DNA from: Acidimicrobiia bacterium
Lineage (GTDB): Bacteria > Actinomycetota > Acidimicrobiia > Spongiisociales > ZC4RG35
DNA length: 64,000 nucleotides
NCBI GenBank assembly: GCA_041744375.1
Contig: JBGTLA010000053.1
Coordinates: 44,536-108,535 of the forward strand
Direction of reading: 5' to 3'
Translations under genes and position numbers: made by a program
The notes under the pieces: model-generated
What the model was told of the DNA's origin: nothing
The model's database searches: none
Seen by the model: the letters and a program-made list of their open reading frames with translations, nothing else
Part shown: in pieces, positions 2,232 through 15,754 of the stretch
How positions within the stretch are numbered: the stretch's first letter is position 1
Layout of the letters: every line of letters starts with the position of its first letter

Positions 2232-3809
2232 ATGGTGGTAGAACCCGTGCTCATCGACGGGGAGTGGCAGAAGTCCACCGGCGTGGGGACGTTTACGGCT
2301 CACGATCCGAAGACCGGCGAGGCCCTGCCTGCGAGTTTCCCGATGTCGGGAATGGATGACCTGGCCAGGGCACTGGACTCGGCTCGTAGGACCGTCCGAG
2401 AGCTGCGTCAGGTCCCCGCGGAGGTATTGGCAGGGTTCTTAACTGCATTTGCAGACGGGCTTATCGCCAACCGAGACGCATTGGTGGTGAGCGCCCATCA
2501 AGAGACCGGGCTCGCGGTCGAGCCTCGACTGAACAGTGTGGAGCTACCCCGCACTGTCGACCAGCTCCACCAGGCGGCGCGAGAGGTGCGCGATCGTTCC
2601 TGGGTAGCGGCGACGATCGACACAGCCGCCGGAATCCGGTCGATGTTCCGTCCGTTGTCAAAACCCGTTGCGGTATTCGGTCCCAACAATTTCCCATTCG
2701 CCTTCAATTCGGTCTCCGGTGGCGACTTCGCGGCGGCGGTGGCCGCGGGCAATCCGGTCATCGCCAAAGCCCATCCCGGTCACCCGATGACTACGAAGCT
2801 GATCGCCGATGTGGCCCGGGAGGCGATCGAGTCGTCGGGGCTGCCTCCCGCAATGCTGCAGTTGGTCTATGGGCTCCGGCCCGAGGACGGGACGGCCTTG
2901 GCGAGCAGCGGCGACTTGGGGGCGATCGCCTTCACCGGCAGCAGGCGCGGTGGTCTGAGTCTCAAAGCACCGGCGGACGCCGCCGGTGTTCCGATCTACC
3001 TGGAGATGAGCAGCGTCAACCCGGTGTTCGTCCTGTCGGGCGCACTGGCGAGCAGAGGCGACGAGATCGCCGTCGAGTTCTTCGGCTCTTGCACTCTCGG
3101 CGTGGGGCAGTTCTGCACCAACCCCGGCCTCGTGGTCGTTCCGGCTGGGCCCGAGGGAGACGCGTTCGTCGACACCGCCAAGAGACTCTTCGGAGAGGGA
3201 GAAACGGGTACGTTGCTCGGGCCGTCCAGCCATGTGGCTTCGGCGGTGAGGGAGCTCGAGGCGGCGGGAGCCGAAATCCTCATCGGCGGGTCGAGCGGGA
3301 AAGGCGAAGGCTTCCGATTCGCCAACACACTGCTCACCGCCTCCGCCGGCCAGTTCCTGGCCGATCCGGTGGCGATGCAGGCAGAAGCGTTCGGTCCGGT
3401 CTCGCTCATCGTCAGGGCCGGCAGCGTCGACGAGATGGTGGGCATAGCCGAAGCGCTCGAAGGCAATCTGACCGGGTCCATCTATTCGGCTGCGAACGGC
3501 GCCGACGAAGATGCCTACCGGCTGCTCGAGCCGGAGTTGAGGCCGCACGTCGGCCGTCTTCTCAACGACAAGATGCCCACGGGAGTAGCTGTCTCGCCGG
3601 CTATGAACCATGGCGGGCCTTACCCGGCGACAGGTCATCCGGGGTTCACGGCTGTTGGGCTGCCGGCCGCCATCCATCGCTTCGCCGCTCTTCATTGCTA
3701 CGACAACGTGGCTCATCATCGACTGCCGATCGAGATCCAGGACAAGAATCCCAACGGCAGAATGTTCCGCTACATCGACCGGGTGTGGACTCGCGAGGAC
3801 GTGTCATGA
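2232..3809 (+). CDS. NAD(P)-dependent aldehyde dehydrogenase (alpha-ketoglutarate semialdehyde dehydrogenase-like)
   Basis: Aldehyde dehydrogenase superfamily fold with 'FTGS' and 'EMSSVNP' style motifs. The ATG at 2232 (MVVEPVLIDGEWQ) is preceded by GGAGGG. The ORF-track start at 2157 is an upstream in-frame extension. Confidence 0.8.
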   Translation: MVVEPVLIDGEWQKSTGVGTFTAHDPKTGEALPASFPMSGMDDLARALDSARRTVRELRQVPAEVLAGFLTAFADGLIANRDALVVSAHQETGLAVEPRLNSVELPRTVDQLHQAAREVRDRSWVAATIDTAAGIRSMFRPLSKPVAVFGPNNFPFAFNSVSGGDFAAAVAAGNPVIAKAHPGHPMTTKLIADVAREAIESSGLPPAMLQLVYGLRPEDGTALASSGDLGAIAFTGSRRGGLSLKAPADAAGVPIYLEMSSVNPVFVLSGALASRGDEIAVEFFGSCTLGVGQFCTNPGLVVVPAGPEGDAFVDTAKRLFGEGETGTLLGPSSHVASAVRELEAAGAEILIGGSSGKGEGFRFANTLLTASAGQFLADPVAMQAEAFGPVSLIVRAGSVDEMVGIAEALEGNLTGSIYSAANGADEDAYRLLEPELRPHVGRLLNDKMPTGVAVSPAMNHGGPYPATGHPGFTAVGLPAAIHRFAALHCYDNVAHHRLPIEIQDKNPNGRMFRYIDRVWTREDVS

Positions 3810-11172: not shown

Positions 11173-12690
11173 TCAAGAACCCACCAAGACCAGCCCGAAC
11201 GCAACGACACCTCCGGCGGCGAGGTATGCAGCCGTGATCCACAGAGTGGTGGCGAGAACCTCGCCTTCCTTGCCAGTCTGTTCCACCACGGCGTTGGCCG
11301 CGATCACGTTGTGGGGGCAGATCATGTTGCCGGCGGCGGCGCCAAAGCCCTGGGCTCCGATGAGCGGGAGGGGGGGCAAGGCCAGCGTGTTGGCGGTTGT
11401 GTTCTGGAAGTCGGTGAAGAGGATATTGGAGGCGGTGGCTGAACCGGTGACAAAGGTGCCGAGTGCCCCTACCACCGGGGCCAGCAAGGGCCAGCCCGCA
11501 CCGGCGAGGTCGGCGGTGGCGCCGGCCAGGGCGTCGATCATCCCCGAGTGGACCATGACTCGCGAAAGGCCCAGCATCGCCACGAGCGCGACGGTGACGG
11601 TGCCCACCTGTTGGATTGCCTTTCGCACCGCCTCCGTGAGATTGCTGTGCGGCAATCGCTGTAAAGCCCATCCCAGGAGAAGGCCGCCCACCACCATCGA
11701 GCCTGGGTGGTAGAGGGGAGCAAAGCTTCCGGCGAACCCACCCTGTAGCCTCCAGGTCCACTCGAGCCCGCTCAGGGTATCGCTGACTCGTGGCGGAAGG
11801 CGGGTGGCCAGAACCAGGCCGACGACCCCCAGGTAAGGCGCCGCGGTCCACACCGGGCCGGGGAGGTCGGCCTCCGGCGGTTCGTCGGCGATGGGGCGGA
11901 AGCGACGGACGAGGGGAACGAAGGCCAACCCCCCGATGAGCGCTCCGCCGAGGGTGGGCAGCTCGGGCCCCAGGAACCAGGCGATGGCGAGATAAGGCCC
12001 GAGAAAGAACAGGGCGGCGGTGGCGGTGGCAGGGACGGCGGTGCGGGTCATGTCGCCGGTGGTCCTGGCCCGCCTGGCGATGATCACTACCAGTGCCGCC
12101 AGCCCGGCTCCCAAGATGGCGTGATACGGAGCGGTGGCCCGGGCCAGTTCCAGAGCAGAGAAGCCGGTGGCCGCCACCTGGGGAAGGATCGGTGTGCCCA
12201 CCGCCCCGAACGAGACCCCGGCGGCGTGGCCCACCATCGCCATGATCACCGCCTGGATGGGACTGAATCCCGTCGCCACCAAGAAGGGAGCGGCCAGGGC
12301 GGCTGAAGTCCCAAAGCCGGCGGCACCCTCCATGAAGAGGGCGAAGAACCATGCCACCAGGAGAGCAAGCACGCGCGGGTCTCCGGTGAGGCGGCCGAGG
12401 GACCCTTCTATGGCCTCCAATGCCCCCGAGGTTGATTGCATCTGGTGGAGGGCGAGAGCGGGAACGATGATCCACAAGATCGTGATCGACGTGAAGATCG
12501 CCTCGGCCATCGCCCCGCCAGTGGCGGCCAACGGCCCTACGTCGGCGGTGTACCCCTCGCGGAACGGCCCCAAAGCGAGGAGTAGCGCCACGGCCAGTCC
12601 GGCCAGACCGGCCCTTGATGCCGGCCATCGCATGCCCAGCATGAGGACCAGGATGACCACGATAGGAAGTGCTGCCAGACCAGCCGACAT
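11173..12690 (-). CDS. L-lactate permease (LctP family)
   Basis: 505-aa polytopic membrane protein with the LctP-family glycine-rich membrane segments. The overlapping 639-aa ORF at 11012..12931 is treated as spurious. Confidence 0.8.
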   Translation of the reverse strand: MSAGLAALPIVVILVLMLGMRWPASRAGLAGLAVALLLALGPFREGYTADVGPLAATGGAMAEAIFTSITILWIIVPALALHQMQSTSGALEAIEGSLGRLTGDPRVLALLVAWFFALFMEGAAGFGTSAALAAPFLVATGFSPIQAVIMAMVGHAAGVSFGAVGTPILPQVAATGFSALELARATAPYHAILGAGLAALVVIIARRARTTGDMTRTAVPATATAALFFLGPYLAIAWFLGPELPTLGGALIGGLAFVPLVRRFRPIADEPPEADLPGPVWTAAPYLGVVGLVLATRLPPRVSDTLSGLEWTWRLQGGFAGSFAPLYHPGSMVVGGLLLGWALQRLPHSNLTEAVRKAIQQVGTVTVALVAMLGLSRVMVHSGMIDALAGATADLAGAGWPLLAPVVGALGTFVTGSATASNILFTDFQNTTANTLALPPLPLIGAQGFGAAAGNMICPHNVIAANAVVEQTGKEGEVLATTLWITAAYLAAGGVVAFGLVLVGS

Positions 12691-13004: not shown

Positions 13005-13691
13005 ATGCTCGGGCGCATGCTGGCCGATTTCACCGTCACGGACCAGGAGGGCAATCCCTGGGTCTTATCGGACCATCTCGACGCGGCCGCCCTGCTGGTG
13101 TTCCTGCGTGGCGACTGGTGACCGTATTGCAATGGCCAGCTGGTCAGCCTGGCAATGCACCACGATCGGTTCCTGAAGGCGGGTACCCGCATCTTTGCGG
13201 TATCGGTAGACAGCCCCGGGCGCAACGCCGCCCTGGTGGAGAAACTGTCGCTTCCCTTCCCCCTGCTTTCCGACCCTGATCGCGCCGCCGTCATCGATCC
13301 CTATGGGCTGGCAGACCCCCACGATGAGCGCAACATCGCCATTCCGGCCATCGTGCTCGTCACCCCCGACCGACAAGCGGCCTTTCGCTTCGTTTCCCGT
13401 GACTTCGCCGACCGGCTGCCAGAAGAAGAGATCCTCGAAAAGGCCGCCGGCCTTGGCCTCGCGGCCACATCCCAAAAGGAACCGGCCGTCGCCGACCCCG
13501 AACCGGGCGAGCGATCGCTGAGCCCCGAGCAGCTGCGCCTCTATTTCCGCGCTGCCCGCTTCGCCGCCTACGCCCTGGGTCGACGCCATCGAAGCTACGA
13601 GGACGTGAAGGCAGACAGTAAGGCCTTCGTGGCCGAGATGGATCGGTATACGACGGCGCTCGACTGGCTCTCTGCAGCGCATCGCTCCTGA
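13005..13691 (+). CDS. Redoxin/AhpC-TSA family thiol peroxidase, candidate selenoprotein with in-frame TGA at the active site
   Basis: The frame reads 'MLGRMLADFTVTDQEGNPWVLSDHLDAAALLVFLRGDW-TGA-PYCNGQLVSLAMHHDRFLKAGTRIFAVSVDSP...LPFPLLSDPD'. The TGA at 13119..13121 sits exactly where the first Cys of the redoxin 'WCPxC' motif belongs. A hairpin with GGUC in its loop lies 11-35 nt downstream at 13132..13156. The ORF caller reports only the post-TGA part (13155..13691). The call is either a selenoprotein or a nonsense pseudogene. Confidence 0.55.
13132..13156 (+). promoter_or_regulatory. Candidate bacterial SECIS element
   Basis: Stem 13135-13139/13149-13153 (GCCAG/CUGGC), extended by 13132-13133/13155-13156. 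The 9-nt apical loop CUGGUCAGC contains GGU and starts about 13 nt after the in-frame UGA. Confidence 0.35.
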
Positions 13692-13723: not shown

Positions 13724-14608
13724 TTAGCCCTGGGCCCGCCAGCCGCCAACGATGTCGGCGGTCTGGGCGATGGTGTCGAGCGTGATCGGGTCGAGAACGA
13801 GTTGCACGGTGGCGACGCCGGCCTCGTCGAGGGCAGTCAGGGCCTGTTCCTTGGCTCTCCGATCGGAGAGGCGATGTGCGGCGTCACGCCGGACGGGGTT
13901 CAATTCGAAGTGCCACAGCATCGCCAGCGTCTTGGCGACGGTGTCCGGGTCGCGTCGAACCGTTCGGCAGGCTTCGTCGATCTGGCTCAGCAGAGCGGGG
14001 ACCTTCGCCGGGTCGTTGTCGTAGGAGGCGTACCAGGCGTTCCACTGCTGCACGTGCGGAAGCGTCGCCGCCAGCATCCTTCGGCCGGTGGAGCCAATGA
14101 GAAGAGGTGGGCCCCCGGCCGTCGGGCCGAGGGGATCGATCACGCAGTTCGGGAAGTGGTAGTAGGTGCCGTGGAAGTCGATGGCGCCTTCTCGTAACAG
14201 AGTGCGGATGACGGTGAACGCCTCCTCGAAGCGGCTGGCCCGGTCTTCGAACACGAACCCGAAGGCATCGAACTCGGTCCGATTCCACCCCGACCCCAAG
14301 CCGAGGATAAACCGTCCGCCGGAGATCTCGTCGAGGGCCGCCGCCTGGCGCGCCAGCACGGCCGGGTTGTGAAAGGGAGTCGCGGCCACCAAGGGACCGA
14401 TGGCGACCGTGTCGGTGGCTTCGGCCAGGGCCGCCATGGTCGTGAACGTGTCCCACGGACCCCGCCAACCCTCCGGGGTTTGGTAGAGCAGGTGATCGCC
14501 CACCCAGATCGAGTCGAGCCCACTCTCTTCGATGAGGCGCGCCATTGCCTTGATCTCGATCCACCGAACGCGCCGCTCGATCTCGGGAAGCTGAACCCCG
14601 ACATTCAT
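13724..14608 (-). CDS. LLM-class (luciferase-like) flavin/F420-dependent oxidoreductase
   Basis: TIM-barrel luciferase-like monooxygenase signature ('SIWVGDHL', 'GRFILGLGSGW'). Start taken at the internal Met 'MNVGVQLPE'. Confidence 0.75.
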   Translation of the reverse strand: MNVGVQLPEIERRVRWIEIKAMARLIEESGLDSIWVGDHLLYQTPEGWRGPWDTFTTMAALAEATDTVAIGPLVAATPFHNPAVLARQAAALDEISGGRFILGLGSGWNRTEFDAFGFVFEDRASRFEEAFTVIRTLLREGAIDFHGTYYHFPNCVIDPLGPTAGGPPLLIGSTGRRMLAATLPHVQQWNAWYASYDNDPAKVPALLSQIDEACRTVRRDPDTVAKTLAMLWHFELNPVRRDAAHRLSDRRAKEQALTALDEAGVATVQLVLDPITLDTIAQTADIVGGWRAQG

Positions 14609-14821
14609 TCCTGCTCCTAGGCGGCTTGGTGGTCGACTCTCTGTCCATCTAAGCAAGCGCGGAGATGACGTACGATCTCCTCTGAGAAGTCGTGTGCCTC
14701 CGCCTGCAGCTTCTCGGCTCCCTAACGTCGGCGGTGTCGTTTCGTCGGTGAGGGACGATCGGCGTCTCGATACGGTCTTTGGACCCGTGACATTGCGCGG
14801 TCCGGGTCGAACAATCGACTC

Positions 14822-15298
14822 ATGATCGATTCACACGACTACCGATTGACATTGAGCGGCACCGGAGTCAAGACCGGCCGGTTCTCGGCCGGCGACGGGC
14901 GGCTGCCTCCTCTCGAGGTGGCGTCCCCTCCCGAGTTCGGTGGGCCGCCTACGACGTGGAGTCCGGAGGACCTCTTCGTGGCCGCCATCTCGGCCTGTCT
15001 CATGACGACGTTTCGAGCCATGGCGGATCTGTCCCAGCTCGAGGTGCTTGCCTACGCCGACGAGGCGTCGGGCCGACTGGCGCGCGACGAGGCGGGGGGT
15101 TACCGCATGGAGTCGGTGACGCTCCGCCCGCGTGTGCTCATAGGCGACCGCGACAAGGTCGCCAAGGCACATCGCCTACTCGAAAAGGCGGAGAAGGCCT
15201 GTTTGATCAGTCGCTCGGTGAGTGCAGAAGTGCGGATGTCCGCCTCGGTAGACGTCCCCGAGGTTGCGCACACCGTACCCAGCCTCAGTGGGCCCTGA
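14822..15298 (+). CDS. OsmC/Ohr family peroxiredoxin-like protein
   Basis: 158 aa. The OsmC family fold shows the conserved Cys pair context 'AAISACLMTT' and 'EKACLISRS'. Confidence 0.75.
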   Translation: MIDSHDYRLTLSGTGVKTGRFSAGDGRLPPLEVASPPEFGGPPTTWSPEDLFVAAISACLMTTFRAMADLSQLEVLAYADEASGRLARDEAGGYRMESVTLRPRVLIGDRDKVAKAHRLLEKAEKACLISRSVSAEVRMSASVDVPEVAHTVPSLSGP

Positions 15299-15373: not shown

Positions 15374-15754
15374 ATGCAACCCATCGAGACAACGGTGGCG
15401 CTTTCCCTCGAACGGGCGGAAGAAGCCGTGCGAACCACCTTGGCGGCCAACGGGTTTGGGATCCTCACCGAGATCGACGTGGCGGCCACGCTGGCGTCCA
15501 AACTCGGAATCGAGCGTCCACCTTTGAAGATCCTCGGCGCCTGCAACCCGGTCTTCGCTCATAGGGCTCTCGAACTGGATCCCGACGCAGCGATGGTCCT
15601 TCCCTGCAATGTCGTGCTGGAGCCTGCGGCGGGAGGCGGCACCAGGATCAGAGCCGTGAATCCGCACGACTTGATGCCCGATCCGGCTTTCGCCGAACTA
15701 GCCGCGGCTGCGGCCCAGGACCTGACCGCTGCCCTCGATGCTGTGGGCGAGTGA
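15374..15754 (+). CDS. DUF302 domain protein
   Basis: 126 aa with 'FGILTEIDVAATL...KILGACNP' matching DUF302. AAGGAG RBS upstream. Confidence 0.65.
   Translation: MQPIETTVALSLERAEEAVRTTLAANGFGILTEIDVAATLASKLGIERPPLKILGACNPVFAHRALELDPDAAMVLPCNVVLEPAAGGGTRIRAVNPHDLMPDPAFAELAAAAAQDLTAALDAVGE

Follow-up and report, generated by a model that had tools for sequence, protein, structure and literature searches.

Peroxiredoxin (Prx)-like selenoproteins have been predicted in bacteria by comparative genomics and metagenomics, as set out in the Global Ocean Sampling analysis (PMC2398784) and in a review (PMC13188914). The 'Prx-like thiol:disulfide oxidoreductase' with a PF00578 domain and a UxxC or UxxU motif, where U is selenocysteine (Sec), is a recognised predicted family (PMC13188914, PMC2398784). 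The gene described here lies in a 64-kb stretch of contig JBGTLA010000053.1 from an Acidimicrobiia bacterium. This whole stretch, with 64.5% G+C, is referred to as the window, and all coordinates follow its numbering. The gene is interrupted by an in-frame TGA at 13119–13121 and, with a probability of about 0.92, is an intact UxxC selenoprotein gene in which the UGA is recoded via a bacterial selenocysteine insertion sequence (SECIS) hairpin. Selenoproteins of this kind are known, having been predicted since the 2000s, and the class Acidimicrobiia was already recognised to include selenoprotein-rich members.

The features shared with 'Prx-like 1' (PF00578, UxxC) are the AhpC-TSA domain, Sec as the first residue of UxxC, the occurrence of Sec/Cys pairs, a SECIS directly after the UGA and a function that is inferred only. 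The protein falls in the Prx-like UxxC family by its tabulated domain and motif definition, rather than by alignment to WP_010940744.1. The Acidimicrobiia clade differs from 'Prx-like 1' in its extra C-terminal helical hairpin of ~75 residues, which is without a Pfam match. PrxU of Eubacterium acidaminophilum (NF040737) is also a bacterial selenoprotein with the AhpC/TSA fold, but there Sec replaces the peroxidatic Cys (TxxU), whereas in the window protein Sec would lie at the Thr position and the Cys at the peroxidatic position is kept (UxxC). The score against the PrxU model is 25.9 bits, compared with a cut-off of 270. The best NCBIfam match is to the SelL-related redox proteins of the peroxiredoxin-like 2 group (NF040769), which have a CxxC/UxxC-type motif on a Prx-like scaffold. 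At 50.6 bits against a cut-off of 120, and over residues 7–95 only, this match places the protein outside the group by the NCBI criterion.

Outside the selenoproteins, ResA (3c71) has a similar W-C-P-x-C context ('WGTWCPHC'), and among the BCP/PrxQ or AhpE peroxiredoxins (2cx3, 3hjp, 5epf, 1xxu) Bcp4, BcpB and AhpE come nearest to the window protein in overall fold. The window protein differs from this set of proteins in having Sec for Cys, an extra C-terminal domain and none of the Prx Pro, Thr and Arg residues. Proteins of the ResA/TlpA type carry an N-terminal signal peptide or membrane anchor. By inspection, the N-terminus of the window protein has neither, therefore the protein is probably cytoplasmic.

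Conservation of the in-frame TGA

Translation of 13005–13691 on the forward strand reads MLGRMLADFTVTDQEGNPWVLSDHLDAAALLVFLRGDW up to the TGA, with ...AALLVFLRGDW as the last residues before it, and continues as PYCNGQLVSLAMHH...AAHRS to the terminator of the frame, a second TGA at 13689–13691. There is a single internal stop, and the motif across it is RGDW-U-PYC. When U is read as Cys, the Pfam AhpC-TSA domain (PF00578) matches residues 3–123, across the TGA, with E = 1e-23 and 84.1 bits against a gathering threshold of 26, and Pfam Redoxin is matched as well. This agrees with the original prediction, made from the sequence alone, of a redoxin N-terminus running in frame into the TGA and on into PYCNGQL. 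The same prediction had stated that open reading frame (ORF) calling sees only the portion after the TGA; in the mechanical ORF list the gene is indeed represented only by an ORF of 178 amino acids (aa) at 13155–13691. The start codon is probably ATG 13017 rather than the alternative upstream ATG 13005, since relatives begin ~4 residues before a 'DFT' motif, several of them with a stop codon just upstream. The tblastn alignments begin at residues 1–12 of the query that starts at 13005.

Relatives were sought among 5.8 billion predicted proteins, giving 378 homologues of which the best 120 were inspected, and in a scan of GTDB with one genome per species, giving 296 relatives of which the best 80 were fetched and aligned. 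The aligned set is either 83 sequences (the window, its sequence in two other assemblies and the 80 species representatives) or 81 (the window and the 80 representatives). The codon is TGA in all 83, in the motif RGDW-TGA-(P/S/A/G)-Y-C, including the two independent Logan assemblies of the window sequence. The best 80 relatives are all metagenome-assembled genomes of Acidimicrobiia or unclassified Actinomycetota; the alignments extend through the N-terminal part of the protein, and the full-length translations are 213–233 aa with 49–70% identity to the window protein. Upstream of the TGA the second codon positions of the 81 sequences are near invariant and the third positions are free, and the same is true downstream. 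This pattern of substitution by codon position shows that translation extends over the 34 upstream codons and that they are subject to purifying selection. To judge from the alignments, the UGA is conserved in orthologues with coding-type conservation on both sides. At codon 38, the partner in UxxC, the first two bases are invariant and the third is C in 79 of the 81 sequences and T in two, therefore always encoding Cys.

If the gene were a nonsense pseudogene, which the original prediction had left as an alternative, or the product of a sequencing or assembly error, the TGA would be a recent inactivating mutation or a miscalled TGC or TGT and the product would be dead or truncated. Gene callers do annotate only the 178-aa downstream ORF, and no Sec machinery is seen nearby. 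However, the same TGA is present in the two Logan assemblies, in 80 other species and in a contig from JGI, the 34 upstream codons have kept their coding pattern, a dedicated downstream hairpin is conserved, and the shortened ORF would be without the entire redox motif and three strands of the fold. Conservation of the TGA and of the coding sequence upstream excludes the pseudogene, and the chance that this or an error accounts for the TGA is negligible.

The best 120 database homologues are essentially all ~150–190 aa in length (range ~148–192), begin just after the TGA and give 64–78% query coverage. NCBI names the shortened homologues 'peroxiredoxin family protein', because the best NCBIfam matches fall below their cut-offs. 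One database match appears to be full length (P0002, 'GDWWPYC'), yet the DNA of its source, L085 582–1259 on JGI contig Ga0633713_0320760, reads TGA at the W. The JGI pipeline rendered this TGA as Trp, apparently because the short contig was read with a UGA=Trp code. Calls of this sort can make selenoprotein genes look like Trp variants in protein databases.

The annotated proteins raise the question of two separate products, a 34-residue peptide and an independent protein of 178 residues from ATG 13155, with the hairpin as an element of translational coupling or attenuation. This ATG is 33 nt past the TGA, just beyond the hairpin, and many relatives have a Met nearby, hence their annotation. 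The position of the Met is not fixed, however, and the annotated relatives differ in their start, from ~148 to 192 aa. The two pieces form one continuous Prx fold in the model described below (mean confidence 91.7) with the redox motif at their junction, while the Cys forms are single uninterrupted ORFs, and there would be no reason for TGA rather than TAA or TAG in 83 of 83 sequences. Two products are therefore exceedingly unlikely, and a single recoded frame is the better explanation of the gene.

The closest 80 species and the best 120 database matches include no Cys form, another point in which the clade is unlike 'Prx-like 1'. More distant relatives were reached through an exhaustive HMMER search of 1.84 billion cluster representatives. 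These are single uninterrupted ORFs of 213–249 aa with Cys at the position of the TGA, in the motifs GDWCPFC, GDWCAYC, GDWCSWC and GDWCPYC, which bears out the expectation that Cys-containing homologues would align Cys with the TGA. The GDWC..C motif is present at this site in P0123, P0125, P0128, P0134, P0135 and P0141, and the DNA of four of these Cys forms has TGC or TGT at the codon. Alignment of an in-frame UGA with the Cys of homologues is the pattern expected of a selenoprotein.

The hairpin downstream of the UGA

The 45 nt from the TGA were aligned for the 81 sequences and numbered with the U of UGA as +1. The sequence GGCCAGCUGGUCAGCYUGGC (+16 to +35) is almost invariant. RNAalifold folds it into a hairpin at +17 to +35, beginning 13 nt past the UGA codon, with pairs 17-35, 18-34, 19-33, 20-32, 21-30, 22-29 and 23-28; the base at +31 is bulged out and +24 to +27 form the loop. 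A GGUC-looped hairpin had been proposed at 13132–13156; the hairpin and its loop exist, but the conserved core is shorter, at 13135–13153. Third-position entropy is 0–0.5 bit at +12 to +33, compared with ~0.8–1.7 bits before the Trp-Sec codons, ~1 at +6 and +9, 1.76 at +36 and mostly 1.3–1.9 beyond. Since the synonymous sites are frozen across the hairpin, and only in the stretch +12 to +35, the constraint is on the RNA and not on the peptide NGQLVSLA alone.

Standard pairing is found in 99.5% of cells of the RNAalifold structure, with G-U intermediates at four pairs. When the 3' partners are shifted by 1–3 nt the pairing falls to 2–46%. One compensatory change was found, from C-G to A-U at pair 18-34 in L073 and L081. 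The bulged base at +31 is free to vary and can be C, U, A or G. The criterion of bSECISearch is a downstream stem-loop with a conserved G/U in the apical loop, ~16–37 nt from the UGA, and the hairpin at +17 to +35 has these characteristics.

The Cys forms are the most telling control for the hairpin. Four of them encode NGQLV(S/A/E)LA or NGQLASAA by other codons, with CTC for Leu and TCC, GCC or GAG at the Ser position. In these four, 4–5 of the 7 pairs are kept, none has the GGUC loop, and the folding energies are -2.0 to +4.9 kcal/mol versus -8.7 in the window. The original proposal of a UxxC selenoprotein with a SECIS is upheld by the TGA in all 83 sequences, the Cys in distant homologues, the nucleotide-level selection on the hairpin and its absence from the Cys forms.

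Alternative structures were considered for the same region. A smaller hairpin, UGGCC-AGCU-GGUCA, is predicted in the window, but most relatives have a C-A mismatch at its pair 15-28, the A18 of L073 and L081 would break its pairing, and the conservation out to +35 would be left unexplained. An extended lower stem of UGCA with UGCA (13128–13131 with 13156–13159) is possible in the window and is not conserved in relatives. A blind scan of all loci for a TGA plus a GGUY hairpin gave 102 non-focal matches among 5,578 open-frame TGAs, which is too noisy without a coding filter.

The SECIS of Escherichia coli fdhF was read from NC_000913.3, where the UGA is codon 140. It folds with a GGUC loop at +22 to +25, a 3-bp closing helix, a single bulged U and then three pairs. 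The window hairpin has the same GGUC loop two nt further on, a 3-bp apical helix, a single bulge and a further helix of four pairs (three in fdhF), and both elements are inside the coding sequence (CDS). They differ in that the bulge is on the 5' arm in fdhF (U) and on the 3' arm in the window element (variable, +31), that the stem sequences are unrelated, and that a subclade of the window family has a GGCC loop. The contact points of SelB in fdhF are the loop G and U and the bulge. By analogy, the window hairpin would be bound by SelB.

Cases of the GGCC loop are found in the subclade of L037, L051, L075 and L078–L080, where TTG GCC replaces CTG GTC (+22, +26), so that the loop becomes GGCC in place of GGUC and the peptide reads LA in place of LV. 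There is a compensating C-to-U change, giving a U-G pair at 22-29; in L075 the loop-closing pair is additionally broken (U-U). Should SelB contact the loop U as it does in E. coli, a different loop may be recognised by the SelB of this subclade.

The UGA at 13119–13121 would be decoded as Sec during translation, with SelB and its bound Sec-tRNA(Sec) recruited by the hairpin in the manner of E. coli fdhF. The second TGA, at 13689–13691, has no such hairpin and would terminate translation. As the terminator of the gene is also TGA, one codon would be read in two ways within one mRNA, a situation that a SECIS resolves.

Predicted fold, chemistry and gene setting

An AlphaFold2 model of P0002, which is 68% identical to the window protein, has a mean predicted local distance difference test score (pLDDT) of 91.7 and shows a Prx/BCP-type thioredoxin fold over residues 1–147. 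The first long helix has residue 35 at its N-terminus. At the C-terminus of the protein are two more long helices (170–191 and 196–222). In a Foldseek search of the PDB the best matches were Bcp4 (3hjp), BcpB (5epf) and AhpE (1xxu), with target-normalised template modelling scores of 0.83–0.85 and root-mean-square deviations of 1.7–2.4 Å over ~147 residues; the matches span only the first ~147 residues and the C-terminal hairpin is outside them. The conserved motif of this C-terminal extension is YxRGARFAA...G.RH...DSKAYVAEMDR. There is no significant Pfam family in this domain, DUF3144 being matched at a non-significant E = 0.052. A comparable extension is present in several of the Cys forms. 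Partner binding and oligomerisation are possibilities for the role of the helical hairpin.

Aligned with solved peroxiredoxins (2cx3, 5enu), the protein has its Sec opposite the Thr/Ser of T/SxxC and its downstream Cys opposite the peroxidatic Cys. In the alignment to ResA, the Sec lies opposite the N-terminal Cys of CxxC. The TGA had been placed precisely at the catalytic Cys, which is correct with respect to CxxC oxidoreductases, where it is the N-terminal Cys, and is not so with respect to canonical peroxiredoxins, where it is the Thr/Ser position. Within R-G-D-W-U-P-Y-C the Prx Pro is replaced by Arg and the Prx Thr/Ser by Sec, and the catalytic Arg of 2cx3 ('AKRAVFIV') aligns with a Pro that is at least 95% conserved in the family ('AIPAIVLV'). 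From a canonical peroxiredoxin active site, defined by PxxxT/SxxC and the catalytic Arg, only the Cys at the peroxidatic position is kept.

The aligned residues point to a Prx scaffold with a CxxC-plus-Pro active site. Arg, Sec and Pro stand in for the Prx Pro, Thr and Arg, which makes a thiol:disulfide (or sulfenate/persulfide) oxidoreductase more likely than a classical hydroperoxide reductase. The suggestion of a Sec-containing thiol peroxidase is therefore retained as to Sec and doubtful as to peroxidase. In the chemistry proposed, Sec35 at the N-terminus of the first helix would act as the attacking nucleophile on a disulfide, sulfenate or peroxide substrate. Cys38 would resolve the intermediate to form an intramolecular selenenylsulfide, and a thioredoxin- or mycoredoxin-type system would reduce this again and regenerate the enzyme.

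The gene is solitary; its neighbours are a divergently oriented lactate-permease gene and a luciferase-like monooxygenase gene that converges on it (Table 1). No neighbour is common to more than 14 of the 81 loci, and there is no operon clue to function. Neither a sigma-70-like promoter upstream nor a terminator on the forward strand was found by scanning. An antisense ORF of 205 aa (13065–13682, reverse strand) has a coding-like composition and recurs in 38 loci, and is most simply seen as a shadow of the conserved high-GC sense frame.

Table 1. Features of the Prx-like gene and its surroundings (window coordinates)
Feature	Position	Strand	Basis
Full CDS of the predicted Prx-like selenoprotein, 224 residues including Sec35	13017–13691	+	Translation; Pfam; start by homology with 80 relatives
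34 codons upstream of the UGA, strands beta1–beta3; outside the protein annotated by gene callers	13017–13118	+	Codon-position conservation, 81 sequences
In-frame UGA, predicted Sec35, first residue of U-P-Y-C	13119–13121	+	TGA in 83/83; Cys in distant relatives
Cys38 codon (TGC), UxxC partner, at the position of the BCP/PrxQ peroxidatic Cys	13128–13130	+	Alignment to 2cx3 and 5enu
Frozen synonymous positions, encoding C-N-G-Q-L-V-S-L-A, constrained as protein and RNA	13130–13153	+	Third-position entropy
SECIS-type hairpin, GCCAGCU-GGUC-AGC(C)UGGC, 19 nt, 7 bp, 1-nt bulge at 13149, GGUC loop at 13142–13145	13135–13153	+	RNAalifold, 81 sequences
Family-specific C-terminal extension, predicted two-helix hairpin	13524–13688	+	AlphaFold2 model of P0002; conserved columns
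Lactate permease	11173–12690	-	Precomputed Pfam labels, identical Logan contig
Luciferase-like monooxygenase	13724–14656	-	Precomputed Pfam labels, identical Logan contig
OsmC-family gene (Cys-containing) and DUF302 gene	14822–15298 and 15374–15754	+	Precomputed Pfam labels, identical Logan contig

Selenocysteine use in Acidimicrobiia

Several observations weigh against Sec decoding of the UGA. Covariation in the hairpin is sparse owing to the near constancy of the element, a single pair having changed at both bases in two sequences, and the control with shuffled 3' partners carries no correction for sequence relatedness. The single-sequence folding energy is no better than that of shuffled controls (z = 0.39 and -0.93); that the hairpin is beyond chance follows from the comparative evidence and not from thermodynamics. 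Neither SECIS nor any other Rfam family is matched at gathering thresholds, nor at E ≤ 10 on 13080–13220. The genes selA, selB, selD and tRNA-Sec were not found in the window or within ~6 kb of the gene in relatives. The relatives are all metagenome-assembled genomes.

The coverage of bacterial SECIS elements in Rfam is poor. With respect to the Sec machinery, the window contains no tRNA genes and no Rfam matches, ARAGORN called no tRNA-Sec at any of the 80 loci, and neither the window nor these loci gave a tblastn match to E. coli SelA, SelB or SelD. The lack of selenium-utilisation genes in the window had been correctly noted from the sequence. Two 'tRNAs' were called by ARAGORN, a 93 nt Pro(cgg) at L035 2269–2361 and an 89 nt Asn(att) at L077 8626–8714, both on the reverse strand, with no Rfam tRNA or tRNA-Sec at E ≤ 0.1; these are probably false.

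Sec machinery is on record for other members of the class. Peng et al. 2016 list Ilumatobacter coccineus, I. nonamiensis and Ca. Microthrix parvicella as SelD+, SelA+ and SelB+ (PMC5029168 Tables S1, S2), with 15, 10 and 7 selenoproteins, respectively, in these cultured Acidimicrobiia (PMC5029168). All genomes of Actinomarina (Acidimicrobiia) are reported to contain selA, selC, selD and a divergent selB below the KofamScan threshold (2026 preprint, bioRxiv 10.64898/2026.04.03.716425). It is likely that the organism from which the window derives also decodes Sec, and that Sec is inserted at residue 35.

Decoding of the UGA as another amino acid would involve either a genome-wide reassignment to Trp or Gly, or near-cognate read-through as Trp or Cys, stimulated by the hairpin in the absence of Sec machinery. 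Reassignment of UGA to Trp is reported from one family of Actinomycetota, Eggerthellaceae (PMC13462651). The JGI pipeline gave W for this codon on one contig, and the Sec machinery of this genome is inferred only. On the other side, TGA terminates 27 of the 35 large coding-like ORFs of the window, this gene itself and 48 of the 81 family genes. As TGA is an ordinary stop in this genome, reassignment of the codon is excluded. In the 64 kb, at 64.5% G+C, the TGA studied here is the only in-frame one with a convincing coding signal on both sides. In addition, the homologues carry Cys and never Trp, which would destroy the CxxC centre, the hairpin copies the layout of the SelB-binding site of fdhF, and cultured Acidimicrobiia carry SelA, SelB and SelD. 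Decoding as an amino acid other than Sec is therefore very unlikely, and recoding to Sec is preferred.

A second candidate selenoprotein family was seen in one of the relatives. In L027, 2.5 kb upstream of the Prx-like selenoprotein gene, there is a gene of the glutaredoxin family (3487–3804, forward strand, Pfam E = 5.4e-10) with a TGA at 3571 in the position of the first Cys of CxxC. It reads VFWRPG-TGA-PFC, and downstream of the TGA comes a hairpin with its GGUC loop at +22 to +25, the same distance as in E. coli fdhF. The pattern recurs on three unrelated contigs (L088 1162–1683, L089 1–411 and L090 237–725), the in-frame TGA of this candidate family being set in IEVFWRPG-TGA-PFC. Close full-length relatives carry Cys at this position (WRPGCPFL, WRPGCGFC). 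On the basis of sequence, these glutaredoxin/mycoredoxin-like genes look like a second family of selenoproteins. An apparent hydrophobic N-terminal segment is present in L088 and L090. The glutaredoxin genes of the L027 type, together with Peng et al. 2016 and the Actinomarina preprint, give indirect support for Sec use by the organism from which the window derives.

The chances are about even that the Prx-like genes represent a distinct, so far undescribed subfamily of the Acidimicrobiia, always with Sec, with a C-terminal two-helix domain of its own and a near-invariant, fdhF-like SECIS of 19 nt, misannotated as a 180-aa 'peroxiredoxin family protein'. Standard annotation loses selenoproteins of this kind, with the NCBI, JGI, ENA and Logan entries cut to ~180 residues and the redox centre gone. 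These shortened entries bias both the prediction of function and surveys of selenium use in Acidimicrobiia, which are abundant in soil, sediment and sea water. The understanding of Sec decoding is unchanged by this finding. Its practical value is in the correction of a systematic annotation error and in a clean, near-invariant SECIS that marks the subfamily; GGCCAGCUGGUCAGCYUGGC, 12 nt after a UGA, is a simple marker with which these genes can be found and corrected. The likeness of this SECIS to that of fdhF suggests that heterologous expression in E. coli may be possible.

For the organisms themselves, the gene would mean a further Sec-dependent thiol oxidoreductase, present across the clade, in a lineage already known for the unusually high number of selenoproteins in its cultured members. 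If the Prx-like genes do form a distinct subfamily, they and the glutaredoxin-like UPFC genes of L027 and three further contigs would suggest that uncultured Acidimicrobiia have a rich selenoproteome that has gone largely unannotated.

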